A stretch of 63,069 nt of DNA, the filler included, from Stramenopiles sp. TOSAG23-3 (taxonomy: Eukaryota), in assembly GCA_900128585.1 (NCBI GenBank). It is 8 parts of 8 records of this genome, joined end to end, with 100 filler letters (N's around TTAATTAATTAA, not from the genome) between each part and the next. Parts side by side here need not be neighbours in the genome. Positions count along the whole stretch, not along the records: positions 7,936 to 15,762 come from LT643097.1; 7 more parts are not named here. One strand, written 5' to 3'. Made by a program: the position numbers and the translations under genes. The notes below the pieces were generated by a model. The model did not search any database, was not told where the DNA came from, and was given only the letters and a program-made list of their open reading frames with translations. This document shows positions 7,936 through 53,708 of the stretch, in pieces (the first letter of the stretch is position 1; every line of letters starts with the position of its first letter).

Positions 7936-8028
7936 AAAACAAGAAAATTGGCTGTTATTTAAGTAATTAAAACTAATGTACTGCGAACTGAACTCTAGAT
8001 TTAGACTCTTCCTCTTCTCATTAAATTT

Positions 8029-9162
8029 TTAATGAAGGGAATGGCCAGGTCCAGCAGATGCAAATCTATCGTTTTCATCATCATGATGTTGACTAACTGG
8101 TAATTCATTTTCTATATCGGTTTGCGGAACGGCTGTATACCCTCGTGGTCGACCAAAAGTTGCTTCTTTTGCCAAAAAATGGAGGCAGCAGGGCACCAGG
8201 AAACATAGAACAAAGGGCAACAGCGCCAAAAACATTATCCACTCCCCAACTCTAGCACACGAAAAACAGTCTTTAGTGTCTTTGCCTACGGGAAACCAAA
8301 CGCGCACCGTGTAGCGATTCATCGGCGCGAGGTACGAATGTCGTTGAAATTTCACTATTCCAGTTTTCTCGTCGTACGTGGACCCCGTTTCATTGACCAG
8401 GTTTGGGCCGAATATTTTTAGCTCCTTCTTCTTGAACGCCTTCGGAAGCTTTATCTCCACAAAGATGCGCTTTATTGCCAAACGGTTTGAATATCCAGTG
8501 CTGTACACAATTTCGTTGAAGGTATTGCTTCCGTTTTGAATCACCCCTAAATCTCCCCACCAGTCCAATCGGTATCTGTTGGTAACAACTGGAGGCGCAA
8601 TAATCTCTGGAAACTCCCACATGATGACACTTTTGCAGCGCGTCGTCGCTCTCTTCTTCACCTGTATCTTGCTATGGTTGGAGTATTGCTGGCTGGTCAG
8701 GTTCCGTATGCCTTTAGTGTAAAAGCCTATGCCCACGGTGTCGTCTCCCAAAAAAATGGCTTGGGAAGAAAATTTTCCACTTCTATAATTGTAATCGTTC
8801 CACATGGAACCATTGATTTGACACTTGCCTTTGACGGCTTCAATTTTCACAAACACTCCAGAAATTTCGGCCTCGTTATCGTCGTCGGGCCCGGCCTTTA
8901 GCTTCGAGTCAACTTCTAAGGCAGAAACGTACGTCTGACCGTCAGCGGCAACGCTCCCATTTACATACGCATACCGTTCCTGCTGGGGCAACGACTTGTT
9001 TGCCTGCAACGGCCTCGCAGCTTCTACAACAATTTCTAAGTTTTGGTCGTCCTCCCTCACAAGATTCTGAGCACAGACAAAACCGACGCATAGCAGTAAT
9101 GAGGAAAGGAACAGTGACGACGAGCCGTTGCCTTGCGACACCCCAAAGCCTAATCCTCCCAT
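8029..9162 (-). CDS. Single-pass type I membrane protein with beta-rich ectodomain (weakly DUF2207-like)
   Basis: Signal peptide LFLSSLLLCVGFVCA, N-glycosylation sequons, TM WIMFLALLPFVLCFLVPCCL and a cytosolic YTAV sorting motif. Confidence 0.75.
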   Translation of the reverse strand: MGGLGFGVSQGNGSSSLFLSSLLLCVGFVCAQNLVREDDQNLEIVVEAARPLQANKSLPQQERYAYVNGSVAADGQTYVSALEVDSKLKAGPDDDNEAEISGVFVKIEAVKGKCQINGSMWNDYNYRSGKFSSQAIFLGDDTVGIGFYTKGIRNLTSQQYSNHSKIQVKKRATTRCKSVIMWEFPEIIAPPVVTNRYRLDWWGDLGVIQNGSNTFNEIVYSTGYSNRLAIKRIFVEIKLPKAFKKKELKIFGPNLVNETGSTYDEKTGIVKFQRHSYLAPMNRYTVRVWFPVGKDTKDCFSCARVGEWIMFLALLPFVLCFLVPCCLHFLAKEATFGRPRGYTAVPQTDIENELPVSQHHDDENDRFASAGPGHSLH

Positions 9163-9756
9163 AATGTCTCTCGGCTCAATCAACTACTGCAACTGAAAAA
9201 AAATTCTTCTCTCTGCTAATCAACAACAAAGGCACCACAAATCTCCCAACGATTGCAATACTAATTTCTACACGATTCAAATATTTTCCAATGAAATCAG
9301 ATTTTAAAACTGCCCTTTTCTTCATCATTAATTTTATTATTTCATAATAATATTTTTTTTTTTCTTCATCTATCTCACACGACGCGCGGCGGCCGGGCGG
9401 CATCCTCCCATCATTATTATCATTATTTTCAACGGAATAAGACGCACGTAGTAGACTAGTAGAACAAAAAAATGAAAATAATTAACCCTAATGTGAACAC
9501 TCTTTCTAGAATTTTTTTCCACATCATCCATCATCAAAACAAACAAAAAAAAAGCAAGAAGAAGAAAAAAAAACAAGTTCAAGTTCACTTTTGCTTGGGT
9601 GTTGTTCGAGTTCACTAAGAGTGTCATAAGGATAAAACGTAACCTTTATTTAAAAGATATATAATAAGGTCGAATTGAAAAGATGAAGCCAATCATTTAG
9701 AGTTGCAGGATTAGAAACTGCAGCGTTTTATACCCATTTAACGCAGACAGCGGAAT

Positions 9757-11394
9757 ATGGAATCCATTGTAGTTCGTTCGTTGCCGCCAAATGTGGTCCT
9801 GTCGCACGCGCACCTGGGCGCACTGTTCGGACAACGACCGGTGCCACAGGTCAGGGGATCGGGTATCCCTCACGCTTCCGCGACGAAAAGCGTCAAAGTA
9901 GTAAACGTTGCCTCTGGTAAATCAATTTCAGTTGGTGTTTTTGGACCGAGCAGTAGCGGCACGACGACGAGAGTACAGTTATCAGGGACCGCGCTGCGCC
10001 GTATTGGTCTGGAGGCACCCACTCGGCTTTCTCGGTCTCTGAAGGGCTCGGGCTCGTGCAAGTTGGTTGGCCCGTTGGGGGAAGTTGTTTTGTCGGAAGG
10101 GGTGATCCGACCGTGGCGATCTGCTTCCATGTCAACTAAATTAGCCAGCAAGTTCGGGCTGAAGCATAACGACAACGTGGCATTGAAAGTCACGTGCCCC
10201 CGGAATAGTGTGACTTTCTGCACTGTTAAAGCGCAGGTGGAGGATCAGCATGCGGGGGAGGTGGTCACGTGCGTGCTGGACAGTGACGAAGCCGGGGCAT
10301 GCTTGCTCGCGGACGCAACGCAGTTCGACTTATACGCAATGCAAGGCAAGATTGATAAAAGTTTTACATTCGTCCACCTATGCACTACCTCTGCAATCGG
10401 TAAAGTCAACCCCGCCAGGGTAGACACGTGGGCAAGGGAAGTAATGTCCCGTGAATTCAAACAAAACTACCCTTCCTCCTCCCCGGTTGTTGATGTTACC
10501 GACGTTTCAACAACAGGCGGGAACAAAGAAAGTTCAGTATCGTTCAGCGACGAGAAAGAATTTAAGTTAAACGTTGATGTGTCAAACAGGCACGTCCATG
10601 TCAGCCCAGAGGCCCTCGAAAAGCTGTACGGAAAAAATTACTCGTTGGAACCGTACAAACCAATTGCCTACTTGCCTGAGTGGCTGGCGAAACTTGCGGC
10701 GTTCAGCGCCAAGGAAACGGTTACAATTAAAAACACAGAGACGAATAATGAGATCAGGAACGTTCGAATTTTGGGGCCTCCCCGGGCACGGTCTCAGATA
10801 GAGTTAGCGTTCACGGACTGTCAAATTTTAGGAATAGAGGCACCGACGCGAATCTCCGGGGACAATGTAAATTCGTCCCCAATAGTACTGATCGCAGAGG
10901 ACCTCTCATCAGGGAAGCCGACGACGAGGCGGTTGAATCTTGGCACGGGCGCCCTGCGTGCATGGAGGCATATTCACGCGGACGAGGACGAGGCGGACCG
11001 TCTGGGGTTCCAAGCAGGAGACGTCCTGACCTTGGCCGTCAAATCAAAGGGCAGCACCACACTTTTTCATGACGTTTTGGCACGGGTTGGCGGTGATGGC
11101 GACGGGGTGGAAAAACCTGGATTCTCCTTGTGGAAGTTGGCCAAGCCGTACCTGATGGCTGCCGCGGGCGTATACTTGAAGTGGGTGGGACGCCCTGGTT
11201 TAATAATACATTTGGACACCGACGAAGGCAACGCGTGTTTCCTCTCTGATGCCGAATATTTCACATTGTACAAGCAATTAAACGATGGGAAGGGAGGGCT
11301 AAAATTTCTCGGTTCAACAAAGAACATGGCAAAAATGCCAGATAGGAGACAGAAAATGTGGCAAGAAGAAGTGAAGTACCGTGCAAATCTTTAA
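9757..11394 (+). CDS. pduL: Tandem PduL-type phosphate acyltransferase (PTAC): degenerate N-terminal copy plus intact C-terminal copy
   Basis: C copy has VSNRHVH, KETVTI, VRILGPPR..SQIE...TD...LGIEAPTRISGD, RHIH and HLDTDEGNA. N copy aligns through GLEAPTRLS, LVGPLGEVVLSEGVI and LDSDEAGA. Confidence 0.9.
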   Translation: MESIVVRSLPPNVVLSHAHLGALFGQRPVPQVRGSGIPHASATKSVKVVNVASGKSISVGVFGPSSSGTTTRVQLSGTALRRIGLEAPTRLSRSLKGSGSCKLVGPLGEVVLSEGVIRPWRSASMSTKLASKFGLKHNDNVALKVTCPRNSVTFCTVKAQVEDQHAGEVVTCVLDSDEAGACLLADATQFDLYAMQGKIDKSFTFVHLCTTSAIGKVNPARVDTWAREVMSREFKQNYPSSSPVVDVTDVSTTGGNKESSVSFSDEKEFKLNVDVSNRHVHVSPEALEKLYGKNYSLEPYKPIAYLPEWLAKLAAFSAKETVTIKNTETNNEIRNVRILGPPRARSQIELAFTDCQILGIEAPTRISGDNVNSSPIVLIAEDLSSGKPTTRRLNLGTGALRAWRHIHADEDEADRLGFQAGDVLTLAVKSKGSTTLFHDVLARVGGDGDGVEKPGFSLWKLAKPYLMAAAGVYLKWVGRPGLIIHLDTDEGNACFLSDAEYFTLYKQLNDGKGGLKFLGSTKNMAKMPDRRQKMWQEEVKYRANL

Positions 11395-11823
11395 GAGAGA
11401 TGATAATATTGAATCCTTGTCAAAATTATGATAATTATATTTGGAGGTGTCTGCTGCTGAATGAAGTAAACTAAATACTATATTACAATATTAGAATACA
11501 TTTTTTAAATAGGGCGTCGAGTTCTACTATTTGTCTGTTATGGACGTCTCATAGTTTATATAAACACAGTATTGGGTAAAAATAAGCTTATCACCAGGTA
11601 TAATAATAAGGACACAACACCACCACTACACCTTGGTACAAGAATTCCTCCTCGTATTTATTGAACCTTTAAACGACGATCCGACTGTTCTGCTCTTACT
11701 CGCGCACTTTAGGTTGAAATCCATTGACGAAACAAAATTTTATGGGGTTTATAACGTGCCTTTTTTCTTAAATAGAAGAACGGTATCTTTAACAGGAAGT
11801 GGAAGGTTTCAGTTTTGAAATAG

Positions 11824-13722
11824 ATGGAGAACATCGCTGACACCACCAGATTAGAGAAGGGGGGGGGCGTGGAGGACGTGCTTCAATGGGTCGACGACCT
11901 ATCCAGGGAACGCCATAAGAAATATTTACTTTTAGAGTCTAATTATTTATCGTTTGTAGATGAGCTGCAAGATCTTTTGGACCCTTCGAGTGGCTTAATT
12001 CGTGTAAGACCAGACGCGACAAATACTATGGGCGGAATTGTCCCGGCTTCACCGGTGTACCAAGAGTTAGACCTTCGGGGCAGTGCTGAAACTAAAACGC
12101 GGGGAAAGGCTTCTGTTGTCTCCAACCAGGAGCTGTACTCTCGATCTTCGAATGGGATTTCATTCTCCGTAGCCATCTCGGGGAAACAAATAAACGCGAT
12201 CAATAAGGTTTTTGAGATCGTGCTTGAAAAGTCCAGTGTTAGAGCGGAGATTTCAAGCATTGTTACGGTGTTGAAGCGGACTGCACAATACAACGACACA
12301 AGGCGCGAAGTCATTTTCTTTACGGCCAACGACGGCTCCGTTATAGAGACGAACTTAGAAAGAGTTATAGACAACATATCAAGGAACTGTAAAGGGTTGT
12401 GTACTAGTAAACAGTTTTTGGGGTTTTTCTCGACAGATGCAAACATTCGACGAGTGTCTCTCGAAAATTTGTCATATGCATTAGACAGGAAAAGGGTCAA
12501 ATTCGACCCGTTGACCAGCAAGCCCATCCGAAAACACAGCAAGCCTTCACACCATACTGTGAGTGTCAATTATTCAGCGTTGACCTCTCAAGAAAAAAAT
12601 ATATTCTTCAACCTAGCGGCCCCGCGCACCAAATATATGGAGCTGTTGAACGAAGGCAACGCCTACAGCAAAAATTACGCTGGAAAGCCCTTTATGGGCT
12701 TTGGGGAAGGGAAAGCCACGGCAGAAGATGACGATTTTAGGGATATGCTGCAAAATTCGAGCATTTTTTCGAAGAAACGGGGTAGGCGTAAGCCGACGAG
12801 AAATGTTGCATTCGGACGGACAAATCCTAGTATTCGGTTGCAGAGTAAATCTGTGAATACATCGCCATATCCCTCGGAAGAGGAGAACGGGGTATCTGCG
12901 CTGAACCCTAGAAATGCTGTCGACGTGTCCCACGTGTCAAAACCAAGGCCCAGGTGGAAACAAACCTTATACGATGAAATACCGTCGGATGATGAGGATA
13001 TGCTTGATTTCAATCTGTCGTCTTCGGACGAAGAAAGCAGCAGTGACGAGGAACTCATAGAAAACTTGTCGGATATAAGTGATGTCGAATTAGATGGTAT
13101 AAACGACTTTGGTCAGCTAAGCAAGGGGAGTTTAAAGCAGATGCGGAAGAAAAACTCCAAACTTTCTCCCCAAAAAAAGCGGGAGGAACTGCAGCGCAGG
13201 CACCGAAGAATGAAGCAGCAAGAACGAAAAGCAATGTTGTTCAAGGCTCCGGAAGTTGTGGAGGAGAAGAGGGAGAAAATAGAAGAATGCACACAGAAGT
13301 TTGACAACAAGTACAATGATTCCTCTGGAAGCTTTATGTACAAGCAGTGCGGGCTTGTAAAAGATGGGAATGGAAATATGGCAATAGTCTCCATCTATGA
13401 CGGATCTACACGGTACTACATGAACCAGTGGAAAGTTGCCAAAGCGACAGAGAACGGCCGGGGTTTCTATGCCTACCAGACCAAAGATGAAGCGCTGCAT
13501 GCCGTGTTTCCCGAGAGATCGAGGGCGTTGAGTGCACCGCGCGTCTTGATGAAAGTTTTTGTCCCCTTTGAAGACAGGAAGCGTGTTCAGAATGACGTCT
13601 TTCTGTGCACAAAGATGAAACCTGTCCAATGCTGGGATACTGTCCCAAACGAGGAGAGCAAGGGGTGGAAAATAATTGAGTGGGACTTTGGGGGGATTTG
13701 GCAGTGTACTTTGCACAAGTAA
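11824..13722 (+). CDS. Hypothetical protein with acidic tract, coiled coil and conserved-looking C-terminal globular domain
   Basis: 632-aa ORF flanked by AT-rich DNA. C-terminal SIYDGSTRY...GFYAY...APRVLMKV. Confidence 0.75.
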   Translation: MENIADTTRLEKGGGVEDVLQWVDDLSRERHKKYLLLESNYLSFVDELQDLLDPSSGLIRVRPDATNTMGGIVPASPVYQELDLRGSAETKTRGKASVVSNQELYSRSSNGISFSVAISGKQINAINKVFEIVLEKSSVRAEISSIVTVLKRTAQYNDTRREVIFFTANDGSVIETNLERVIDNISRNCKGLCTSKQFLGFFSTDANIRRVSLENLSYALDRKRVKFDPLTSKPIRKHSKPSHHTVSVNYSALTSQEKNIFFNLAAPRTKYMELLNEGNAYSKNYAGKPFMGFGEGKATAEDDDFRDMLQNSSIFSKKRGRRKPTRNVAFGRTNPSIRLQSKSVNTSPYPSEEENGVSALNPRNAVDVSHVSKPRPRWKQTLYDEIPSDDEDMLDFNLSSSDEESSSDEELIENLSDISDVELDGINDFGQLSKGSLKQMRKKNSKLSPQKKREELQRRHRRMKQQERKAMLFKAPEVVEEKREKIEECTQKFDNKYNDSSGSFMYKQCGLVKDGNGNMAIVSIYDGSTRYYMNQWKVAKATENGRGFYAYQTKDEALHAVFPERSRALSAPRVLMKVFVPFEDRKRVQNDVFLCTKMKPVQCWDTVPNEESKGWKIIEWDFGGIWQCTLHK

Positions 13723-14003
13723 AAAATACAAAATATATTTTTTTTTAAACAAATTATTTAGTATGATAGTATGCTTTAAGACTCTCATTTATTTTAAATC
13801 AATTATTATTTCAGTTCCAACCCTAATCCTATCTTGATGGTTTAATAACTTGATTTTTTATTTAATTTTTTAATTTCGTTTCATCGTTGATGATTGTCAA
13901 CCAAATATTTTGTATATACTTAGTATATTTGTACGAATTTACGATCGTAAGTTCAAAAAAAAACTAACGATCGTAAGTTCATATTCTTAAGAAAATACTT
14001 TAA

Positions 14004-15047
14004 TTATGGCTTCCTCTTTCTATGCTTCTTCTTCGGTTTCGATCCTACTAATTGTTCTGTCATTTCCTGAGTCATAATCAGCGGCGCCGACCCGTCCGAG
14101 GGCTCTAAAACTCCAGTGACCTGCCCGTTCTCATGCTTGATGACCTTTGTCGAAAATTCTAAAGGGGCTCCCTCGACGCTCTGCGCCAAGCTTAGGCCGT
14201 TTTTGTTCATCGGGCAGTCGATCAACCTAAACCCGCTGATTTGTAAGTGCCCGGACGGCACCATAGGGTTGATGACTGGGCCACGGTTTTCACAGTCGAT
14301 GACGGCCTCTTTGTCGACCGCCGAGAGTAACTCGACGTGTTTCCCTTGAAAGTCTAAGAAAAAATTGCCGGGGCCGTTGTACCACCCTGGGTGAACGTAC
14401 ACCCTGGCACGCTCGGACGCCCGGTTCAAGCCATGCTGGATGCTCCCACACGGACGGTCAGTCTTTCCGCAGTTTTCGCTAAAGCTTCCGAATTTGTTGA
14501 CATGAACGGTGGATAACAGAGGGCGCTGCTTTTTGGGCAGCTTCCTCGTTTTCTCGCTGGGGAGAAGAGGCCCCCTGTCGTTAATTTGCCTGCGGGGGCT
14601 CTTGTTATCGATAGGCCCTGGAGCTGACCATTGGGAGGTTCCTCGCTTCACGTCCGTGTAGTAAAAGTCTCGAAACTCTTCCGAGTACGTGCGTTTCCAT
14701 CCGCTTGGGATATTGTTCTCAGAATCTGCTAAGGAATTTGTACAGGAGGGCGGAAATGACCAAGTCGTAGTCTGGCTCTCTTTGTGATAGAAGTATGCAC
14801 GCTTTTCTATATCTGAATAGTACTGCTCCCACCCGGTACACCCCACTATGTCTTCCTCGCTTTTGGCCTCTTCCTCATCGTCACCATCGTCCATTTCCTC
14901 CCACGCATCTATATCCTCCTCACTAAGTTCATCTTTCCCAACGTTCGGGTCAACTTGGTCGGAACCTTCCTCGCCTTGCGAGGCGGACACAACAAACACG
15001 GACAGCAGCAGTAGCAATACCACCACCACCACACTAGTACTCTTCAT
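14004..15047 (-). CDS. Signal-peptide protein with two WW domains and a DUF1565/beta-helix-cap-like segment
   Basis: MKSTSVVVVVLLLLLSVFVVSA; GWEQYY..RAYFYH..TTTWSFP; PSGWKRTY..FYYTD..TSQWSAP; CGKTDRPCGSIQHGL...VHPGWYNG. Confidence 0.82.
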   Translation of the reverse strand: MKSTSVVVVVLLLLLSVFVVSASQGEEGSDQVDPNVGKDELSEEDIDAWEEMDDGDDEEEAKSEEDIVGCTGWEQYYSDIEKRAYFYHKESQTTTWSFPPSCTNSLADSENNIPSGWKRTYSEEFRDFYYTDVKRGTSQWSAPGPIDNKSPRRQINDRGPLLPSEKTRKLPKKQRPLLSTVHVNKFGSFSENCGKTDRPCGSIQHGLNRASERARVYVHPGWYNGPGNFFLDFQGKHVELLSAVDKEAVIDCENRGPVINPMVPSGHLQISGFRLIDCPMNKNGLSLAQSVEGAPLEFSTKVIKHENGQVTGVLEPSDGSAPLIMTQEMTEQLVGSKPKKKHRKRKP

Positions 15048-15683
15048 GGGAAACCAGACAAACGATAATAAAGAAAATATAGAACGATTGTTTTGTTTTT
15101 GTTTAGTTTGTACGTAATTCTTTTCTGTTTCCATGTGTTGTTGCCTAGACTAAATTGATCTTTAACATAAATATATAAAAAACCATATATAAAACAACTA
15201 CTTTTCTCTGGTGTTTTAATTATTATATTTATTGTATGTATTTTTTTTATTATTTTTATATAATAATAGTAGCTAATATAATAATAAAATAAAATTAATA
15301 CAACAGTAGTAATTCTTTAAAATAAAAAAAATAATTATTATTATAGATACCTTTGGTACTACTGTACTGTAATAGTCGTCTGTGTAATATTTTTTATATT
15401 AATTATTTTTAATTTATTACAACCAACAGTTCCTTACTGTGAGTATGGTATTGAATACGATGGGTACCTGTATTTACCTGGTTTTATACCTACCTACCTC
15501 TGATTACATCAAAGACACATAATTGAGTAGGAGGTACAGGTACCGGTAGGTACTAATTTAACTCTTCTTGTGAATGGACTGAGAAGAAATCTATTCTACT
15601 ACCAATACGAGTAGACGACTAATAAAATGATACATCGTACCTACCATAGAATAACCATTATAATAATTTTAAAATTGTGAGGC

Positions 15684-21316: not shown

Positions 21317-23661
21317 TTAATGGCGGTGGTCTTCAGCAGCGAGCAAATCGATTGGGGCAAAGCCTCTCTCTATAAGAAACGAGCAAGGGCCGAGTGCAAA
21401 AGCCCAGGTCCCTCCAGTCACAAAAACGTCAACGGCGGTCCGTTGGCCATTCCAATGTGTAGATATTTCTGTCCCATTGGCGCCCAAATGCATCTCGGCA
21501 ACGCATAATGGGAATGGAAGAACATGCTTTTGGTGCAGTTTGTCTGAGACATGCAAGACAAGACGAGCTCTGCCACAGTTGTGGGGTATCGTGGCATTCA
21601 TATGGAAGATCTTTTCTTCCATCTTCCATGCGACTTCCACAGGCCCACAACGCGTTTCTATTCGTCCGTGTGCGGCCTTCAGTATTTTTACAGCATGTAC
21701 ATCTGGTGTTAAGTGCATTGTGACATGTTTGCTCAAGTTGATGGTGCCGTTTCCTCGCAATTTTCTCCAATGCAACGGGATCGACCATGTTGACGGGTCA
21801 ATCCCTACGATAGAATACAGGTACGGACCAATGCTGGCGGTAAACATTGGGTGGTTGTGTGAGTTAGACTGGTCGTTCCACGTTTCCCAGATAGTTCCAG
21901 GCCCCTTCTTCACCATGTAACCCCAAGACGGCTCGTCTTCACGCATTGCCATAGATAGAGCAATGTCACCACGCCCAGCACTGACCAGAGCTTGCAAAAC
22001 AAAACTCGCCCCTACCAGGCCGGAGTTTGTTGCATTCTTCGCTTTTTCCACGTTTTCGACAAAAGCCTTTGCTGCCATTTTTGTTTCTAAATCCGACGGA
22101 GGGATATTTAGAATAAGTGGCATTAAGTTAGCTGTTTGGCTTCCACCCTTGTAGCACTTGCAAGAAAGGTCCCAGTATGTTCGATGATAAGCCGCTTTAA
22201 GTGATAGCAGTGTTCGGTTGTATGCCTTTGCATCCGCATGCTTTCCTAGATATTCAGCCATATCTACCAAATGACTGACAGCTTGAATTTGTGTCATCGA
22301 TGTTACTTGTGGCTTGCCCGTTGCCTCTAAAGATAACCAGTCTCCATAATAGCCAAATTCAATCAACCCGTCACCAGAAGCTTCGCGTTGAAAGAAATCA
22401 ACATTTGCTTTCGCAAAATCATAAAATTTTTCCACCAATTCACTATCACCACTTTTCCACACGACATACGGCAATACAGTAGCGATTGCACCCCAGCTTG
22501 GATCGCCAGGCCATCCGCCAATGTACATGTAAGGTACTACGTCAGCAACACTTCCTTGTATTTGGTCGAACGTTCCGTTTGGGATTCCGGTATAATCGCA
22601 ACCAAATTTAGAATACTTTGGGTAGCAGCAAATGTCCTTATTGGTCTGGGGAAAAACTGGCGTGGTCCCATGAAGAGCGCAGCCCGCATGGTCGTGATCC
22701 AACATGGTCAAAAGCCAATGTTCGTACAGCAATGTCATATCAAAGTTAAGCGAAGCTTGCCGGCTCGTAAATTGAGCATCGCCGGTCCACCCTCGCTTTT
22801 CCCGTTGTGGGCAGTCTGTTGGATGAAAGTGTAAATTCGATAACTGCGTCTGTATAATAGCGGCTTGGATCCCGTTCAAAACAGGACTGTGAGGAAATGA
22901 AATATGGCCCCTTTGAGAAACATTTGAATGAAGAAACAAGCCCACGAGATCAGTAGGAACGGGAGTATACGAGGCTGCGATATTCTCTACTTGAACATAA
23001 CGGTACCCATGATATGTGAACGATGGTATAAATTTGAATCGTTCCGATGCTTCCTGCGCAAGAAAAGGTATGTATGTGTCGGTCTGATTAGCACAGTTGA
23101 TACTGCTGCAGTTACACGGTGTCTTGCACCATGCCATATCGACAGTGCCATCGTCCTTAAGAACTTCCCCATACTTCAGAACAATTGGAGATCCATCGAC
23201 AAACGCACCTCTAGGTAGTGACAACTCGGCATACCCTGCCATATTGTGGCCCATATCAAATACCCAGTGCCCTGGGTGTGGCTGTTGAACTGCGACGGGC
23301 ACATAGCGTTTTGATATTGTTATTGGAGGCATTTGTAACAGCGCAGGTGTCCCTAGCGCTCGTTCTGCCGGAATAGAACCGCTCCCCGTATTGAACATGG
23401 CCAACACAGCCGACTTCCATTTGCTCCGATCGTCCGTGGCCACCCTCCCATCGTACTGCTCGCCGTGGTACAAATGGCTGTAACGTATAGGGTTTGCTTC
23501 TGTCGTAGCTTTCCATAGTCCGTCGGATGTGGATGTTACTATCCTTTGTTGTCTGCCATCTGTGTACGTCACTCTCAGAGACATTCGAAATGCTTTGCAC
23601 ACGTCTGTTGCAGCATGCCCACCAATACAGAACGCATCTTGATACGAAAATCTACACATTC
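21317..23661 (-). CDS. Alpha-L-rhamnosidase, GH78 (5'-truncated)
   Basis: VFDMGHNMAG, FTYHGYRYVQV, PTDCPQREKRGWTGDA, YGDWL, PSWGYM..GPGTIWETW and SHNHPMF. Confidence 0.93.
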
Positions 23662-41912: not shown

Positions 41913-42268
41913 GCCGGGTGTGAATTCATAATGTGGTGTAGTAGTAGTATTTGCATTCTTCTACAAATGCTGCTGCTTACCACAATTATTTTTTTTGTGT
42001 TACAAGGTGTAAATAGTACGTAGTATTAATAATTTTTATTTTTTTCCTTCTTCTTCTTCTCTTGCTTACCTTGGTGGTGGTATTTAATATTATTCTATGT
42101 TTCAAGTTACCGTACTACCGAACGAAGTATCAAATTTGAACAAGACAGACGCTAAAATATATATCATACAAGTTACCAATGGTTAGCAGTTTCATGGATT
42201 GTTGGAATCTCCATTTTTAATTTCTTCGGTTTGTAAGAACAGTGCCAAGCTCCAACGATTACAGGATT

Positions 42269-43225
42269 ATGTCGTTACGTGTAGCATTAAGTTTATGTGG
42301 GGCGTTGAAAACTAGTCAGACGGGCACAGTTTCATACATAGCATGGAGAGATTTAATTCATGTACTTTTGCCGTTTCTGCCTTTATTTGTATTTTGTTTA
42401 GTTTTTAACAATAGTACAAGCCCCACCGAATCCTGGATGTCGTCGTTTCGCTTGGCATTAAGTTTATGCGGGGCACTGATCGCAAGTCATACGTGTACAG
42501 TTACATATATAGCCTGGAGAGATTTGACAGGTCAATGGAAAAAGCACTCTTTAATTAAAAATAGAAAACCAACGGTAGGACTTTATTGGAATGGTTATAG
42601 AAAATTTTTGTTTGATATTTCCCTGATGCTATTGCCAGCAATGACTGTTGTCTGCCATTTTCGTTTTGACGCGGTCATGAATGCTACTGTGGACGATCCT
42701 GCTTGGAAAGGGTTTTTGAAACAATTTATTGGTTATAACGTAGGCGAATTGTGGGTTGCAGGCGCACATAAAATCATGCATCATCCATATATATATGCAG
42801 CCGTGCATAAACGTCATCACTGTGCTATTAAAGAATTAGTGGCATCGGCCGCTTGGCTGGATACGACTACGGAATTTTTAGTTGCTGAAATACCAGCATT
42901 ATTAATGGCACTTATGATTCTTCCGACCAATCCTTTTTGGCATCATTTATTTTTTGCATATCAAGGTTTAGGTGCTGCGAGTGATCATGCAGGCTTTTCC
43001 TTTGACGATGAGGATGATGGTGGAATAGTACATTGGATTCATCAAAACTTTTTCGATGGGGAATATCATTATTTCCACCATTTAAACCCCAGTGTTAATT
43101 TTGCAGAAGAGGAATGGATTGATTATTTATTTGGCACTCACCATACATATACCAAATGGTGGTCACGTCGTTTGGCACGTGAAGAGAAGGAAGAACGACG
43201 ACGGAAGGAATTAGTCGGAGGATGA
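42269..43225 (+). CDS. Fatty acid hydroxylase/sterol desaturase superfamily enzyme (true start may be 42437)
   Basis: His boxes HKIMHH, HKRHH and DHAG...HYFHH...NF. The N-terminus is duplicated. Confidence 0.88.
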   Translation: MSLRVALSLCGALKTSQTGTVSYIAWRDLIHVLLPFLPLFVFCLVFNNSTSPTESWMSSFRLALSLCGALIASHTCTVTYIAWRDLTGQWKKHSLIKNRKPTVGLYWNGYRKFLFDISLMLLPAMTVVCHFRFDAVMNATVDDPAWKGFLKQFIGYNVGELWVAGAHKIMHHPYIYAAVHKRHHCAIKELVASAAWLDTTTEFLVAEIPALLMALMILPTNPFWHHLFFAYQGLGAASDHAGFSFDDEDDGGIVHWIHQNFFDGEYHYFHHLNPSVNFAEEEWIDYLFGTHHTYTKWWSRRLAREEKEERRRKELVGG

Positions 43226-47454: not shown

Positions 47455-50400
47455 TTAGGAGTCTATTTTGGAAATCTCTTGCGCAAGACTCTCCCCCAAC
47501 AATCCCTGCAGGTGGCCTTTCACAAAATCACTGCTGCGCTTTATCTTTTCCGCAAGATGATTTGCAATGACGGAGAAGAAGACTGGGGCCCTTTGTTTCC
47601 GCAAGCCACCTTCTACCAAACCTTTACAGTACAAACTGTACATTTCCTCGTCGTCGCCGTTGAACAAGCTAGGACCAACATCGTACCTCTCAAAGCCAGC
47701 TTCTAACAGGTACATCATGCGGTTCTTGGTGCCCTTCCTCCATACGTACGAACGGGAATTCTTGTCCTGCGAAAGAAATATCAGCACGCGAGCAAACGTA
47801 GAGTGGCCAAAGGAAGACCGGAAAAAGGTATCTACCAGTGCGGACGACAATTCTTTCACCCCGTCCTCTCCGCATACTTCCAACAACTCGGTGATCGACA
47901 CGCGTTTTAACAGTGCATCAATCAAAGGACAGACATTCTCTGAGATCACGTCTTCGTGGATGAGTTCACCGTCGCGGCGCAAAAATGCCTGCACCAGACA
48001 GAACAAGCGAAGGGGCAGGGGTGCTGCTTTGAGGACATTTTCAGAGTGCAACAGGCCGGAACTTTCCAGCTGGGATATCAGCAGCACGGTTTGCTTCAGC
48101 ACGTTCAAACTGGCCTTGCCGTCCATGGTCATCCCCAGCCACAACCAGTGCCGGGGCACCGGCAGTATCGAAGGCTGGCGTTTGGACATGGTCCGAGGCA
48201 CTAAACTGCAGCACAAATCGAGGGGAGCAGACGCAGACGTGTTGAACAGCGAGATAGAATGCTTTTGGGTGTGCTCGTCTCCCAAGAAGGAAGCAAAGAA
48301 TCGTTTGATCTCCTCTGCATCGACCGCGCTGTTCTTCGTCAGCAGAGGCGACCATACTAAAATATTACTCAACAAATTGGCAAACACGTACTCATCGCCG
48401 GGAAGGATGTTTCCCATTATGGCAAACGACGCGCTGAAGAGTTGCCCGAACACGTCCCGCTGTTTGTCATCCTCCGGGTTGACCTCCGCAACAATGCGCA
48501 CGACAACATCCACTGCGTCGGCTATCAAAAGAACCCGAGCGCGCTCGGTGTACGGGGAAAGCCCTCGCCACGCCCTTGCCATGTCTTCGCTGTCGAGGCG
48601 CACGGCAAACTTGTTGAGAACGGACAACAGGATTTCGACAATAGCGCTGCCGAACATTTTTATTCCACTCTTAAGCATCGCTGACGGGTCGTAGACAAGC
48701 AACGATTGCAAACAGCGCACGTAGCCGTGCAAGACGGCGATGGAATAATCGCGGTCTTCTTTTGCCCCGTCGGCGCGTTCGACCGCGTCAATCAAACGGT
48801 CACTTTTGTGCACTTGAAACATCAACGAAACGATTCTTGAACTCCATCGCGATGGTGGAAAATTGCACGTGCAGTAAGTTGAAATAAAATGCAGCGAGGC
48901 GGCAACCACTTTCGTCCCATTTGGCTTCAAGCTAGCGTCCAAAGCTTCCAGTGCACTTTTCAAGTACATCTCCAATTCCACCTGAACGCTTTCTGCAGAC
49001 TCGTTGTTGCTGTTGCCGCGTTTTCCTGTTGGTTTAGACCGGAAGGCGAGCGCTCTTGCCGAACAGACTGCGTAGACCATGTTTGCCAGTACCTTCCTGT
49101 CCTCCCCTGCCGCTGCTCTTCCTGGAAGCTGGCGCAGCGGCTCGTGCATGGCCATGAACGATGGAACGTCCAGGCCCAGCAGAGCCGTCGATGGAATCGT
49201 GCGCAAAAAAATGGCTCAGCATTTCTGGCGAGAGCAGGTACCGTTTGACCGAGTCGGACAGCCCGTCCGGCGCGGCAACATCCCCGGCGATGGAGCGATC
49301 CATCTGGCACAGCGTTCGGACAAACCGAATAGCGTTGTGGATCACCGTTCCCCCGCTACCGTTCTCGGCGCCTGAATTCCCTTCGATGTAAACCAACCGC
49401 ACGGTGTCTATCAGCTTTTGGTTGTCCCAGATTGTCTTCGCCGCTGCGATGGAATGGGACGCGGCATACGCCAGGGTGTCCATTATGCACCTGGCCAATT
49501 CTATCGGAAGAAAGGCGTCCTCGGTCCCCGCAGAGGGAAGGGAGGAGGCAAGAATTCGATCAAAATATTCCAACATTCCGCTTCGAATTGCCCAGCGAAC
49601 AGGATCTTCCTCTGAGAGTCGTGCGAGCACCCCGTCCGCCGTCTCCTCGCTGGCCTCGTCCTTGCTGTTCCTCTGCAGCTCCGCTTCCCCGACCGCGTCG
49701 ACGACATGGCGGGTTGCAATGGTACAGTGTGGGCTTTGAGCATGCTCTATATGAGGCCAAGCCTCGTGCCTTTTGTAGCCAGCATTCGAAGCCTGCTCCC
49801 GTAAGAACTGCTTTGGAACTAACCATGCGTGTACCGATGCAATGGCTTCGTACATCACCGCCAGGACGTCGCTGCGAAGCCCGAGTATAAGGACTTGCCC
49901 AAGCGACCGGGGCAGCTTCGTCGGCGTCACCACCTGCCCCGTGGGCCTGTCCTCCAGGACGTCGCGTCGCCGCTGCAAGACTTTGGTAAGGGCCCGAAAG
50001 GCCGTCAGCCGTTGGCCTGAAACCACGCTTCGGCTCAAGTGAACCAACTCGTCCACCGTGTACCCGGGCAGTGTCGGGTCATCCCCATGGTGGTACAAAC
50101 TTTCCTCGTCCCCGTCCTGAACCCCGACCACTCGTACGTTGCGAACGTCCTCCCCCTCCCCCAACAAATGCTCGTCGCCTTTCAGGATCACCCTGACCCC
50201 GCTTAAATCAAACCTTGGGGGTTTGGCAAATATCGGAGTGCCCTTGCCCTTGTCCTTCACTGGCTCCATCCATGCAAGTTTGTCCTTTTCGAACGAGGGA
50301 AGGTACTCTTGGGTTGCCGCGATCAGCTCTTCGTCCGTTCTGATGGTGGCCAACTTGTCAGAGACGCCAGGGGGCAAAGTCGGGAACAGGTTCGGGGGTG

Positions 50401-51226
50401 GTCCAGAGGTTGACGGGGGGCGGGGCGGCGGGGTGCTTTCGCCTGCGGTCTTGTTGGGCCGTACTTCGGAGCGAAACTTGCTAGGGGGTTTGGCCGCAGG
50501 CTTCTGCACGTCCCCGCGGGCCTGGGGCTTTGGTCCCCCCCGCCGTTTCCTCAACATCGCCACCAAGGACGGGTCCATGGTGCCCAACAAGTCATCGCGC
50601 GCCTGCTCGACCTCCTCACTTGACATTCCTGCCAACCGCTGCAAGTTCTCGCGGTGAATCTCACTTCTGCTGATGCCAGTCTCGCCCACATTGTCGTTTG
50701 CAGCGCCTGGGGGGGAAGAGGAGGAGGAGGCAGCGGCCGCGTCCGCCGCACTGCGCTTTCTCTGCTCCTCCGCCAACATTTGTCCAAATTTCGATGGACC
50801 GGATTTCTTTCCCTTGCGCGCGGCCAAAGAAAAGGAGAGTTTGCTGCGATGGAGCGCCTTGGGGAATCCCCCCGGGCTAATAGACGGTGCAAAGTACGCG
50901 CTTGGGTTTACCTCCCGCTCAAAAACATCACAGAGCACATCAACTGCGACCGGGGCCTCCATTGGCACTCTGCCAATGTTTGACGGGCCGCCTGCAAACA
51001 TAGTTGGGGCCTTCGTTTCGGCCCCAGCCGCGGTGGGAGGTCCCTCTTCATCGTCTAAACTAATAATATCTTTTTTAACACTTGGAAACTCCTCTTTCGG
51101 GCGCGCAGAGACGACATTGGCCGCAGGCCGCTGGCGCTCTTTCGCGGACATAAACATTCGCTGGGACTCGAGGACCTGGTCCCACCCCGCTTCGTCCTCT
51201 GGGTTCGAAAGGCGAGGGTGGAACAT
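47455..51226 (-). CDS. RPAP1: RNA polymerase II-associated protein 1 (RPAP1/Rba50), split by one frameshift near 49205
   Basis: RPAP1_N EIHRENLQRLAGMSSEEVEQARDDLLGTMDPSLVAMLRKR; RPAP1_C LYHHGDDPTLPGYTVDELVHLSRS...QR; the ARM-like ORF 47455-49206 continues it. Confidence 0.88.
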
Positions 51227-51839: not shown

Positions 51840-53708
51840 CTACTTTTCGTCCACTTTCTTCTCTTTTGTTTCAACGCATTCCATCACCACGACGTCCACC
51901 ATCTCCCGCTTTGTTTCTTCAGGGCTGTCGTCCACAACAATGTCCACCTTTTTCTGCTCTATGGCATTCTGTACATAGGGGTATTGCTGGAAGGGGGCTC
52001 TCGCGCTGGCTACGGTCCACTTCTGAAACGTGTCTTGAACTGCGTTCTCTGCGCCAACCAAGGCGAGCGCGATCCCATCCGTCCGAAGCATATCTTCAAG
52101 GGTGGACAGCGCGTGAAGCCCGGAGAGATCCACTCTAGTGACCAAGGACATGTCTACGATTACACTCCCAACCTTTTCCTCGTCATCGGATGCATTTATT
52201 GCGTTCACTTCGCTTACAATTTTCCGTTTAAACAAGGCGCAGTTCACAAAAATCAGGGGGCTATCGATGCGGATGATGACGTTGCCCGGAGGACGGTACG
52301 CGTTCGGAAACCGTTCCCTGTCTACCCACTGCTGCCCTTTCGCCTCCGTCTTGGAATCCACTCGTCCTAAGAGTGGCATGTTCGGGGACGCGCTCTCGCG
52401 AATCACGTTCAGCATGGAAAAAACGGTCCCAATCCCGACGCCCAGCTCAATGCCCAGGCCGAGGGTTGCCACAAAAGTCGTCGTTAGCACGGCAAAATCT
52501 GAACGATTGACCTTCCAGGCTTTCTTGAAAGCCTCCACCTTGATCATTCCGATGACCGAGGTGATGATGATGGCCGCCAGGGCGGAGTACGGGACAAACT
52601 CAAGGACTGGGCTTAGCACGAGCAACACCAGTATGACCCCAAGCCCGGTAAAAAAGTTCGATGCTGTCGTCCTGGACCCCGCGTCCGCATTTACAGCAGC
52701 TCTGCCAATGCTACCAGCAACTGGGATGGCGTGAAAAAATGACCCTGCTATGTTCGCGGCGCCCAGTGCGATCAGCTCTTTGTTCGGCTCAACGACCTCA
52801 GCCTTGTCGTACACTTTTGCGCCCGCGTACGTCTCTGCAAACCCGATCAGTGCGATGGGGATTGCGGGCAGAATGAGCTCCGGTATTCGGGCGACAATCG
52901 CTGAGCTCGAGAGCACTGCGGTTGGGGCGGGGATGCCGGACGGCTGCTTGCCCACGATGTTCACGCTTGCTCCACTCGCGGTCATCACCCCTGCGACGAT
53001 AGAGGCCAAGCCAATCACAGAGAGAGCAGAGAACCTTGCTGCGATGGATACAACCTTGAAGGCCACGGAGGGCTTTTCTGCTCGAGCACCGGGGGCACCG
53101 TGCTTCTTTTTCCACCACTTGAGAAACAGTAGGAGGACAAAGCTTGCTATCGACAGGAGGAGTTCCGTAACGTTGGCGTTTGGAACTTTTGAGAATATCT
53201 CCCCCAGCGTCTGTACAGGGTAACGGTGCCGGCCAATTTGCACGCCGAGGACATACTTCATTTGACTGGACGCTATGATTACTGCCGCGGCGGTAGTGAA
53301 CCCCCCCAGAACCTCGTGGGAAAGCAGGTGCGTGATGCTTCCCATGCGCAGCGCGCCGAGCGCGAGAGATACGATGCCGCTCAGCAATGTCAACAAATTG
53401 ACCAGTGCAACGGTGTCTTCGGGGGCGACGCCTGGGAGCGCGTTTATCGTACCCGCGCTGAGCAGGGCCAGCATTGCCACTGGTCCGACGGCCACCTGCC
53501 CGGAAGTTCCTAGGAGAGAATAGACCAACAACGGCAATGCGCTCGAGTACAGGCCATATATCGGTGGGACCTCCGCTAGTATCGCATACGCCATTGATTG
53601 AGGGACCAACATGAACAGAACGGTAATGGACGGGACAAGTGCTTCTTTGGCAACCTCAAGCAACCCACGGTCTTTCACAACCTTCACGATTGGGAAAAGT
53701 TTGTCCAT
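51840..53708 (-). CDS. SulP/SLC26 anion (sulfate/bicarbonate) transporter with STAS domain
   Basis: VPQSMAYAILA.VPPIYGLYS, GTSGQVAVGP, NKELIALGAAN, RIDSPLIFVN and VDMSLVTRVDLSG. Confidence 0.95.
   Translation of the reverse strand: MDKLFPIVKVVKDRGLLEVAKEALVPSITVLFMLVPQSMAYAILAEVPPIYGLYSSALPLLVYSLLGTSGQVAVGPVAMLALLSAGTINALPGVAPEDTVALVNLLTLLSGIVSLALGALRMGSITHLLSHEVLGGFTTAAAVIIASSQMKYVLGVQIGRHRYPVQTLGEIFSKVPNANVTELLLSIASFVLLLFLKWWKKKHGAPGARAEKPSVAFKVVSIAARFSALSVIGLASIVAGVMTASGASVNIVGKQPSGIPAPTAVLSSSAIVARIPELILPAIPIALIGFAETYAGAKVYDKAEVVEPNKELIALGAANIAGSFFHAIPVAGSIGRAAVNADAGSRTTASNFFTGLGVILVLLVLSPVLEFVPYSALAAIIITSVIGMIKVEAFKKAWKVNRSDFAVLTTTFVATLGLGIELGVGIGTVFSMLNVIRESASPNMPLLGRVDSKTEAKGQQWVDRERFPNAYRPPGNVIIRIDSPLIFVNCALFKRKIVSEVNAINASDDEEKVGSVIVDMSLVTRVDLSGLHALSTLEDMLRTDGIALALVGAENAVQDTFQKWTVASARAPFQQYPYVQNAIEQKKVDIVVDDSPEETKREMVDVVVMECVETKEKKVDEK

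Follow-up and report, generated by a model that had tools for sequence, protein, structure and literature searches.

How does PduL, a core enzyme of bacterial microcompartments that recycles the CoA unable to cross their protein shell, come to be encoded in a eukaryotic nuclear genome, and what might it do there? The question is raised by one open reading frame in the window, a term used here for the whole analysed stretch of 63,069 nucleotides (filler included) from Stramenopiles sp. TOSAG23-3. A first-pass annotation of this DNA had described the frame as an intronless tandem of a pseudoenzyme and an enzyme, and its position and its length of 545 aa are as claimed there. Our analysis suggests that it probably encodes a peroxisomal PduL pseudo-dimer with a single active site, belonging to an uncultured marine flagellated protist and recycling CoA via an acyl-phosphate. 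The frame is divided as follows.

9757–11394, plus strand: whole open reading frame of the tandem PduL/PTAC protein (P0001), 545 aa and a stop codon, matched by Pfam PF06130 and NCBIfam PRK15070
9757–10371, plus strand: N unit (residues 1–205), PduL-like pseudoenzyme, Pfam 73.6 bits, 0 of 6 metal ligands
10372–10539, plus strand: linker (residues 206–261), a beta-hairpin and a helix followed by a low-confidence stretch, delimited from the consensus and from the pLDDT and secondary structure of the model
10540–11328, plus strand: C unit (residues 262–524), PduL with 6 of 6 metal ligands and Arg343, Pfam 134.3 bits

The PF06130 profile matches the whole protein in two stretches with 202.6 bits (cut-off 25). 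Running the profile on each half separately, a check proposed with the first-pass annotation, gives 73.6 bits for residues 1–218 and 134.3 bits for residues 255–545, both above the same cut-off of 25. PRK15070 recognizes the whole protein with 211.1 bits against a cut-off of 209, while the halves alone stay below this cut-off (76.6 and 139.9 bits). As judged from its sequence, the protein is composed of two complete PduL/PTAC units, with a dead N-terminal copy fused to a C-terminal copy of the live type.

The zinc ligands of Rhodopseudomonas palustris PduL (rPduL) are His48, His50, Glu109, His157, His159 and His204, according to PMC4784909. We tabulated the corresponding positions from a MAFFT L-INS-i alignment with this protein as the reference; an hmmalign run against the bacterial profile was dropped, as two motifs, the first of the N unit and the last of the C unit, went missing in it. 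All motifs quoted for the two halves in the first-pass annotation were located where it had placed them. Those of the C unit are the following.

10582–10599, plus strand: SNRHVH (residues 276–281), with His279 and His281 aligned to the Zn1 ligands His48 and His50
10795–10806, plus strand: QIEL (residues 347–350), with Glu349 aligned to the Zn1 ligand Glu109
10966–10977, plus strand: RHIH (residues 404–407), with His405 and His407 aligned to the Zn2 ligands His157 and His159
11209–11235, plus strand: HLDTDEGNA (residues 485–493), with His485 corresponding to the Zn2 ligand His204; residues 487–495 lie in the predicted interface

All six zinc ligands are present in this half, as had been proposed, and Arg343, which is invariant in the family, aligns with Arg103 of rPduL. 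The C unit matches 5cuo_A in phmmer with an E-value of 2.5e-15, and its model superimposes on 5cuo_B over 184 of 189 residues (Z 9.4, rmsd 4.0, 32% identity), which indicates the double beta-barrel fold of PduL. The model of the whole protein is of moderate quality (mean pLDDT 64.9, pTM 0.66). Full-length C units of the related tandem lineages described below keep 6 of 6 ligands in 7 of 7 cases. Judged by its ligand set, the C unit appears catalytically intact.

The N unit aligns with PduL along its length, with a phmmer match to 5cuo_A (E 2.8e-07) across residues 13–182, and keeps none of the six zinc ligands, in line with the loss of motifs described earlier. Its residues at the six ligand positions are N, V, Q, S, S and V.

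9784–9801, plus strand: PPNVVL (residues 10–15), degenerate counterpart of SNRHVH by alignment, with His48 replaced by N and His50 by V
9979–10002, plus strand: LSGTALRR, with T78 and R81 invariant among N units and residues 76–78 in the predicted interface
10117–10128, plus strand: RSAS (residues 121–124), degenerate counterpart of RHIH by alignment, with both His157 and His159 replaced by S
10195–10221, plus strand: CPRNSVTFC, a conserved N-unit strand with P148 and T153 invariant; residues 148–156 are the centre of the predicted N–C interface
10270–10299, plus strand: CVLDSDEAGA (residues 172–181), counterpart of HLDTDEGNA with His204 replaced by V; D175, D177 and E178 are invariant and residues 176–183 lie in the predicted interface

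The degenerate counterpart of QIE(L) is (R)VQL at residues 72–75. The earlier pairing of motifs between the two halves holds as quoted except for the first, which is shifted by one residue, so that LPPNVVL stands opposite SNRHVHV. The position of rPduL Arg103 is occupied in the N unit by Ser66. Because 0 of 6 ligands are kept and Ser66 stands for Arg103, the N unit should be regarded as a homologue of PduL and not as such an enzyme. It starts at about residue 5, with neither a leader nor an encapsulation peptide. When folded alone from a four-row alignment it gave a poor model (pLDDT 60.6), for which 5cuo_A ranked only 37th (Z 6.1, rmsd 7.5 over 162 aligned residues) in a search that was non-specific.

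Both units carry features that are foreign to the bacterial proteins. Each is followed by a tail of a beta-hairpin and a helix, as seen in the alignment and the model, and the hairpin and helix of the linker hold a conserved R..W..E...REFKQ.YP element, with REFKQNYP at 10450–10473 (plus strand). Two insertions are located in the C unit.

10666–10701, plus strand: AYLPEWLAKLAA, an insertion of about 8 residues that the eukaryote-type units have in common and that bacterial PduL lacks in the alignment
11089–11205, plus strand: a moderately hydrophobic insertion of 39 residues directly before the last zinc ligand, defined by alignment

Spacing over the shorter insertion is 34 in L003, L004 and L006 as against 28 in the bacterial-type loci. 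The longer one is present, with variable length, in all eukaryote-type units and is modelled here as a helix of low pLDDT (residues 458–475). Its best 19-residue Kyte–Doolittle mean, 1.19, does not suffice to call a transmembrane helix. RNA contigs at 10893–11580, 10949–11168, 11138–11381 and 11154–11362 cross it without joints and retain it, and it is therefore not an intron. Among 249 bacterial-type proteins, none has the eukaryote-type insertions or tails.

The surroundings of the gene are eukaryotic. Pfam matches in the window include WW, Myb, RPAP1, RING, EF-hand, TPH and cathepsin L, and eukaryotic genes are found on both sides of the tandem PduL.

14004–15134, minus strand: WW-domain neighbour, Pfam 34 bits
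8029–9183, minus strand: putative type I membrane protein, with N-terminal and C-terminal hydrophobic stretches as read from the translation alone

The WW-domain neighbour had been named before and is confirmed by this match; the second frame matched no Pfam family. The flanks described earlier as AT-rich and host-like have a GC content of 0.332 (9184–9756) and 0.336 (11395–11823), within the range of 0.21–0.40 of other intergenic stretches in the window. The tandem gene itself has a GC3 of 0.58, and its RSCU values correlate with those of the remaining window at 0.59, in the middle of the range of 25 ORFs. Neighbour genes, composition and ligand pattern together support a dead/live PduL tandem in a eukaryotic nuclear setting. 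A neighbouring SulP transporter is most similar to marine metagenome proteins (52–68% identity) and one EukProt model (53%), followed by bacteria at no more than 39%. A microcompartment-type locus was not seen, as the neighbours are eukaryotic (ORFs of at least 200 aa were scanned for shell domains) and no encapsulation peptide is present; PEX, beta-oxidation and acetate kinase genes are likewise absent from the window.

Runs labelled as RNA and drawn from three studies (X3, X4 and the oligo-dT run X8) yielded contigs that match 10116–11580 in aggregate with at least 95% identity and without joints, which is consistent with the intronless gene proposed earlier. The comparison covers 4 of 20 listed marine runs, and since these are assembled contigs of RNA libraries they may hold DNA, and strand, ends and expression level cannot be read from them. 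X1 contigs, for which the label RNA is a guess, cover 9608–11381 and are the sole cover of the 5′ 360 bases. Stretches lacking such cover, for example 9206–9607, carry no evidential weight.

11395–11580, plus strand: 3′ untranslated stretch, from the X3 RNA-library contig 10893–11580

The search for orthologues with the same architecture, also proposed earlier, revealed ten tandem PduL lineages in marine metagenomes and EukProt, with EukProt gene models falling in two of the tandem clusters. At one of the loci (L004), the tandem copy adjoins the C-terminus of a dynein heavy chain and enkurin. In the tree, the N units group together (SH-aLRT 98), as do the C units (91), with the same internal grouping in both. 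Single-unit eukaryote-type proteins fall together with the tandem units, separate from the 74 sampled bacterial units (SH-aLRT 97), and in a FastTree analysis of all 305 units the eukaryote-type clade has a support of 0.98. These sequence trees indicate one old duplication within the eukaryote-type PduL clade, and the alignment suggests that what duplicated was a single-unit PduL already of the eukaryote type and already bearing insertions of its own. Transfer, duplication and inactivation had been placed in this protist by the first-pass annotation. This does not hold, because ten lineages share the tandem and the N and C subtrees branch alike; the events are old and common to all of them. 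Outside this group the family is overwhelmingly bacterial. In the protein atlas only bacterial single-unit clusters were matched (scores of at most 0.88), and no published eukaryotic PduL was found in the literature, though the supplementary PduL lists of PMC4784909 and PMC4207490 might name some.

Why has the dead unit been kept? It is an open frame in all tandem lineages, down to 30% identity, and no repeats able to explain a frameshifted allele occur at 9900–10200. Between 0 and 3 of the 6 ligands are retained across the ten tandem lineages, and the lost residues differ from lineage to lineage. The N unit evolves faster than the C unit, with identities of 76 versus 92%, 58 versus 74% and 48 versus 56%. 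The only close nucleotide pair (L004 and L006) differs at 9 codons, 3 synonymously and 6 not, which is too few for dN/dS to be used. Modelling of the two units as a complex gave an ipSAE of 0.82 (runs of 0.83, 0.82 and 0.81), as compared to 0.01 for the best of three controls; among solved complexes 58 of 80 attain the mark applied, among mismatched pairs 2 of 110. At least 94% of the contacts are common to the runs, and the partner pLDDT does not fall below 86. The predicted interface is formed by residues 76–78, 148–156 and 176–183 of the N unit and 351–356, 401–404, 432–441 and 487–495 of the C unit, its N-unit segments coinciding with the invariant ones. Thus, the dead N unit is predicted to dock on the live C unit. 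This result shows likeness and not binding, because the model may remember the solved rPduL homodimer. The N unit fits the description of a pseudoenzyme partner domain: it is homologous in sequence, has lost ligands in 10 of 10 lineages, keeps its frame and makes contact in the model's prediction.

The C-terminus of the protein offers a clue to its location.

11380–11391, plus strand: C-terminal -RANL, a non-canonical, catalase-like PTS1 candidate

The canonical PTS1 tripeptide is [S/A]-[K/R]-[L/M/I], and the window protein ends in -ANL with Arg at position -4. Human catalase carries -KANL, which PMC2120961 describes as necessary and sufficient for import. The -RANL end fits only this catalase type, in which, according to the same paper, Lys at -4 mattered; here it is Arg. 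A PTS1-like end is present in all seven tandem lineages with an intact C-terminus (-ANL, -SRL, -SKL, -SKI/-SKM, -AKM, -SKM/-SRM and -SKM), canonical in six and catalase-like in the window protein. An end of the form [SAC][KRHN][LMI] is seen in each of the 19 proteins that have both C-terminal motifs; of the 240 with a single motif only 1 shows it, a fragment of a tandem cluster. Scored by the consensus printed in PMC11662444, a canonical PTS1 or full PTS2 is found in 0 of 249 bacterial-type proteins. By the same consensus, a canonical PTS1 is present in 18 of the 39 eukaryote-type proteins, and a full PTS2 nonapeptide at residues 8–15 is carried by 6, which represent three lineages of relatives without PTS1. 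The remaining 15 have neither strict signal under this scoring; most of them are fragments, while P0007/P0143, P0020 and P0142 (-PKL) show no obvious sign of truncation. A looser PTS2 expression was dropped, having matched 6 of the 249 bacterial-type proteins, always within the catalytic unit. Of the 23 readable ORFs in the window, only the tandem PduL itself has a PTS1-like end. These signals in the eukaryotic PduL family are a new finding, which the first-pass annotation had not recognized, and as the family carries them, its cell biology is likely to differ from the view taken there. The tails resemble import signals, and PduL may therefore do in peroxisomes the job it does in microcompartments.

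Other readings of the locus have to be weighed against this. A bacterial contaminant or chimeric contig might be suspected, as the family is mostly bacterial and its relatives have been given prokaryote-style annotation names. We regard this as extremely improbable in view of the eukaryotic genes on both sides, the window-typical composition, the recurrence of the architecture in EukProt models and on a further contig, where dynein and enkurin adjoin it, and the insertions and tails that the bacterial-type proteins lack. The N unit, for its part, might be a ligand-binding regulatory domain, sensing for example CoA or acyl-CoA, or have a new metal-free activity. Besides its open frame, it has 20 positions invariant over 11 tandem sequences and retains the acidic D.DE motif together with Arg118 and Arg121. 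However, the invariant segments coincide with the predicted C-unit interface, and the ligand positions have degenerated in a different way in each lineage, as expected of a relaxed old active site, so there seems little chance that this is the role of the unit.

As for location, a cytosolic PduL might replace Pta in a pathway of the Pta–Ack type with its C-terminal tripeptide unused for import, either excreting acetate or propionate with a gain of ATP under low oxygen or activating acetate. According to PMC4784909, bacterial PduLs outside microcompartments are believed to take the place of Pta, some of them as fusions with acetate kinase; the tripeptide of the window protein is non-canonical and an N-terminal leader is absent. 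Yet seven lineages with 37–92% identity keep a PTS1-type end although the residues before it differ in number and sequence, and relatives without PTS1 carry PTS2, neither signal being present in the 249 bacterial-type proteins. A cytosolic enzyme is therefore unlikely in our judgement. The targeting evidence would serve equally well for a peroxisomal enzyme running in reverse, which would turn acetyl-phosphate from acetate kinase or phosphoketolase into acetyl-CoA to feed the glyoxylate cycle. The reaction is reversible, according to PMC4784909, and we consider this direction improbable.

The reading that we favour, a peroxisomal pseudo-dimer, would work as follows. The di-zinc C unit would catalyse acyl-CoA + phosphate <-> acyl-phosphate + CoA. 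The N unit, a duplicate with all metal ligands lost, would have kept its surface packing beside the C-unit active site and probably replaces the second protomer of the PduL dimer. In rPduL, Phe116 makes a stacking contact with the adenine of the CoA in the neighbouring chain, as described in PMC4784909. At this position the N unit has R81 in the alignment, and the invariant Arg81 is probably the residue provided in trans for the CoA site. The protein would be imported into peroxisomes through its C-terminus, and would there free CoA from the acetyl- and propionyl-CoA of beta-oxidation, releasing small energy-rich acyl-phosphates, in a recycling of the cofactor like that by PduL within bacterial microcompartments.

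In comparison with the microcompartment PduL of this family (PF06130; R. palustris, PDB 5CUO/5CUP), the C unit shares the fold, the six zinc ligands and the counterpart of Arg103, and the proposed role, CoA release in a closed compartment, would be the same. In contrast, the protein described here is encoded by a eukaryotic nuclear gene, has two units per chain of which one is dead, lacks an encapsulation peptide, and possesses the insertions of about 8 and about 39 residues, the hairpin-helix tails and a C-terminal signal of peroxisomal type. Pseudoenzyme–enzyme tandems that mimic a homodimer, in which the live copy retains a dead duplicate as its partner and one active site remains, are known from other families; no description of one for PF06130 was found in the literature. 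Bacterial PduL outside microcompartments works without a protein shell as a substitute for Pta, according to PMC4784909. The bacterial PduL–acetate kinase fusions in our set (P0012, P0016 and P0157) are likewise PduLs outside a shell, but they carry PF00871 or PF01923 instead of a second PduL and belong to the bacterial part of the tree.

The peroxisomal membrane does not pass CoA, which is released inside by carnitine acetyltransferase, acyl-CoA thioesterases and the synthases of the glyoxylate cycle. Phosphorolysis would solve the same problem while keeping the energy of the thioester as acyl-phosphate, and the literature yielded no peroxisomal phosphotransacylase. If true, a fourth way of regenerating free CoA in peroxisomes would be added to these three, and peroxisomal beta-oxidation could yield an energy-rich phosphate ester with the thioester bond not wasted. 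It is even conceivable, though rather doubtful, that flagellate peroxisomes took over the microcompartment PduL for a complete route, in which the acyl-CoA of beta-oxidation would be phosphorolysed, CoA regenerated and the acyl-phosphate exported for a kinase to make ATP. Fat breakdown in peroxisomes would then be coupled to substrate-level phosphorylation, bringing the logic of a bacterial metabolosome into a membrane-bound organelle.

The tandem may be viewed as a natural experiment on the quaternary structure of PduL, a putative one-site dimer with an invariant Arg in place of the CoA-stacking Phe. It also adds an ancient case, matched in RNA libraries, to the bacterial genes that have become established in the abundant, uncultured grazers of the sea. 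If the protein is peroxisomal, the same enzyme would have been recruited twice for the same task in unrelated compartments.

The gene considered here is a single open reading frame:

9757-11394, + strand: tandem PduL protein, 545 residues

A Pfam search matches this protein to PF06130 twice, and the PTAC model under this accession is now 176 positions long, the length of a whole PduL. Run on each half, as the first-pass annotation had proposed, the model scores 73.6 bits for residues 1-218 alone and 134.3 bits for residues 255-545 alone, both above the cut-off of 25. The whole protein is barely above the cut-off of the NCBIfam phosphate propanoyltransferase subfamily model (211.1 vs 209), which neither half reaches alone. 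Both halves also match the only solved PduL, that of R. palustris (rPduL, PDB 5CUO), the N half with an E-value of 2.8e-07 across residues 13-182 and the C half with 2.5e-15. Zn1 of rPduL has been described as bound by His48, His50 and Glu109, Zn2 by His157, His159 and His204, and the phosphate as held by Arg103 (PMC4784909). Alignment to rPduL using MAFFT L-INS-i reveals all six zinc ligands in the C unit and none of the six in the N unit, and in alignments to 5CUO the position of Arg103 is taken by Arg343 (C unit) and Ser66 (N unit). All motifs previously read from the sequence in the two units were located in place. AlphaFold2 modelled the whole protein with moderate confidence (mean pLDDT 64.9, pTM 0.66); superposition of the modelled C unit on 5cuo_B gives Z 9.4 and rmsd 4.0 (184/189 residues).

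The window encodes WW, Myb, RING/ARM, EF-hand and TPH domain proteins, a split RPAP1, a SulP transporter, a cathepsin L with I29 propeptide and one tRNA-Met. GC content is about 50% in coding and 21-40% in intergenic DNA. The PduL gene (GC3 0.58) has flanks of 33-34% GC, and its RSCU correlation with the other ORFs (0.59) is mid-range among 25 window ORFs. Runs of N in the window are spaced about 7.9 kb apart and are masks rather than gaps. RPAP1 is split across overlapping ORFs on the - strand (47455-49206 and 49034-51226), one carrying the N and C domains and the other the TPR, a pattern suggestive of a short intron, of a frameshift or of an effect of the nearby mask. The SulP/STAS transporter (51840-53777, -) is nearest to a few marine sequences and one EukProt model, followed by Bacteroidota (Saprospiraceae) at 34-39% identity, and may be of bacterial origin. 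The ORF at 21317-23659 (-) is a four-domain bacterial-type alpha-L-rhamnosidase (GH78; Bac_rhamnosid6H, 226.8 bits) with codon usage off the window norm (RSCU correlation 0.13, GC3 0.46) and may have arrived by a further, more recent gene transfer. A fatty-acid hydroxylase ORF (42242-43225, +; RSCU correlation -0.25, GC3 0.33) departs furthest in codon usage from the rest of the window.

A word-based search yielded four further tandem-length proteins, 37-53% identical, along with two long-ended proteins of a single unit. When 1.84 billion representatives were searched exhaustively, 1174 matches reached E <=0.001, only 10 of them <=1e-30. Orthologues with the same tandem, which the first-pass annotation had suggested looking for, do exist: searches, cluster members and metagenome loci together give ten tandem lineages, from marine metagenome loci and EukProt models, the latter being present in two tandem clusters.

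Tandem PduL lineages
Window protein
P0003 cluster
P0004
P0138 cluster
P0005
P0139 cluster
P0427 (metagenome loci L003/L004/L006)
P0006 cluster
P0426/P0153
P0425/P0141

The six ligands are kept in all seven full-length C units, and the N units of all ten lineages retain only 0-3, the retained ones varying by lineage. Two insertions are common to eukaryote-type units, one of about 8 residues following the first helix and one of 20-45 residues ahead of the last ligand, as is a tail made of a beta-hairpin and a helix. Contigs carrying relatives range from 30% to 52% GC. On the 19-kb contig of L004, the tandem gene adjoins a dynein heavy-chain C-terminus, enkurin, a GH28 hydrolase and a 2OG oxygenase; together with the TPH protein of the window, dynein and enkurin point to flagellates. 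The tandem genes of L004 (6119-7672) and L006 (7350-8903), from one assembly and with the same neighbours, are near-identical (9 codons differ) and probably represent two strains or haplotypes. In the GC-rich P0006 cluster, all four sequences (P0006, P0421-P0423) end at the same point before the C-unit insertion and the last ligand, which suggests an intron unbridged by the gene callers.

The history of the two units was analysed with IQ-TREE (LG+C20+F+G4 PMSF, quick search) on 100 units, 26 eukaryote-type and 74 bacterial-type, the latter being seven named units and a random draw from 239 eligible. N units form a single clade (SH-aLRT 98), as do C units (91), and identical pairs and triplets recur within the two clades; therefore, one duplication predated the split of all tandem carriers. 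N units, C units and five single-unit proteins make up one group (97). With three more single-unit proteins added, this group is separate from every one of the 74 bacterial units (97). A eukaryote-type clade of 51 units (0.98), within a wider one of 56 (0.99), also appears when the full set of 305 units is run in FastTree. From these trees, the duplicated gene was already a eukaryote-type single-unit PduL. Top-scoring bacterial proteins are from Planctomycetota (33-39% identity), and the tree does not put the eukaryote-type clade inside this phylum as a donor. N units have diverged more quickly than C units (identities of 76 vs 92%, 58 vs 74% and 48 vs 56%), yet their frames remain open and alignable.

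Parts of 9300-11900 are contained in 20 public runs, all marine, 14 of them recorded as RNA. Contigs from four of these, with RNA-labelled runs coming from three studies, were mapped onto 8000-14000 and counted at >=95% identity. They cover 10116-10266 and 10478-10994 in X8 (oligo-dT, RNA), 10658-11362 in X4 (RNA), 10893-11580 in X3 (RNA), reaching 186 bases beyond the PduL stop, and 9608-11381 in X1, which is only presumed to be RNA. As assembled contigs, they speak for presence in RNA libraries rather than for strand, ends or level, and DNA carry-over is possible. Contigs of the four mapped runs contain no splice joints in the PduL gene, and therefore nothing suggests an intron in it; the 39-residue insertion (11089-11205) is crossed unbroken by RNA-library contigs. 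Differences from the window in X3 (a 7-base insertion at 11454, in the 3' untranslated stretch, and T>C at 11343) and X8 (A>G at 10806) indicate strain variation in the sea. At 13861-13900, in the 3' region of the WW-domain gene, contigs of X3 and X4, from different studies, match and then share one same unlike sequence, which might mark a splice site, a difference between strains or a repeat. P0002 and P0140 are the PduL gene of the window in another assembly, split there in two. P0140 tracks the window ORF through residue 97, where it shifts into another frame that starts about 44 bases upstream (compared with 9757-10135), as expected of a short tandem duplication; the window has no repeat at this position. 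P0002 begins at Met125 and differs in one residue (K to N). The split could reflect a disrupted N-unit allele or an assembly error.

Twenty N-unit positions are invariant over 11 tandem sequences, concentrated in LTGT.LR, SPRN.T.FC and LD.DEAGAC. When N (1-215) and C (262-524) were predicted as a complex, with an alignment supplied for each, the ipSAE was 0.82 (runs 0.83, 0.82 and 0.81; best control 0.01), a mark attained by 58 of the 80 complexes with solved structures and by 2 of the 110 mismatched pairs. The runs had at least 94% of contacts in common and partner pLDDT of at least 86. The predicted interface matches homologous elements (N 148-156 with C 432-439, N 176-183 with C 487-495) and includes, in both units, the stretch following the Glu109 strand. 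In the rPduL dimer interface, Phe116 is described as stacking on the adenine of the CoA of the other chain (PMC4784909); in alignments this position is taken by Gln356 in the C unit and, in the N unit, by the invariant Arg81. From the model, we infer that the two units would pair with pseudo-two-fold symmetry into a dimer resembling 5CUO; it would have a single active site, and the N unit would cap the CoA site of the C unit. Because a homodimer of the PduL family is already solved, the docking result may reflect model memory, and it indicates likeness rather than binding.

The ending [SAC][KRHN][LMI] is found in all 19 proteins with both C-terminal HxDxDE-type motifs and in only one of 240 single-motif proteins, itself a tandem-cluster fragment. 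Tails differ by lineage (-ANL in the window, -SRL, -SKL, -SKI/-SKM, -AKM, -SKM/-SRM and -SKM), and the 34-69 residues ahead of them vary in length and sequence. Consensus sequences have been given as [S/A]-[K/R]-[L/M/I] for the peroxisomal targeting signal PTS1 and, for PTS2, as a nonapeptide starting [RK]-[LVIQ] and ending [HQ]-[LAF] (PMC11662444). Scanned against these, with P0002 and P0140 dropped and seven tandem-cluster fragments excluded from the bacterial set, none of 249 bacterial-type proteins has a canonical PTS1 or full PTS2. A canonical PTS1 is present in 18 of 39 eukaryote-type proteins and a full PTS2, at residues 8-15, in six, the PTS2 carriers being the P0006 tandem cluster (C-terminus cut) and the single-unit P0008 and P0018. 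The remaining 15, with neither strict signal, include the window protein (-RANL), P0142 (-PKL), several evident fragments, and two near-PTS2 cases (P0007, P0151). The tail pattern across lineages therefore makes the signal a property of the eukaryotic clade, where, judging by sequence, it appears to be kept by selection under differing spellings. The window copy would carry the weakest version. Human catalase ends in -KANL, reported as necessary and sufficient for import, with the Lys at -4 being important (PMC2120961); the window protein has Arg there. Of 23 readable window ORFs, only the tandem PduL has such a PTS1-like end.

A literature search in the body text of freely accessible articles found neither a eukaryotic PduL nor a peroxisomal phosphotransacylase; the matching papers examined concern bacteria or archaea, or a mitochondrial acetate kinase. 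We are highly confident that the tandem, with one dead and one live PduL, is real, eukaryotic and expressed. Peroxisomal location of the family is reasonably probable, somewhat less so for the window copy, and the full scheme of CoA recycling with ATP yield is speculative and rather doubtful. A peroxisomal phosphotransacylase would be the most economical account of the tandem. Peroxisomes form acetyl- and propionyl-CoA via beta-oxidation, and their CoA must be regenerated internally. The documented role of PduL is CoA recycling within a closed bacterial organelle, the microcompartment (PMC4784909), and by analogy the tandem may perform a like task in the peroxisome.
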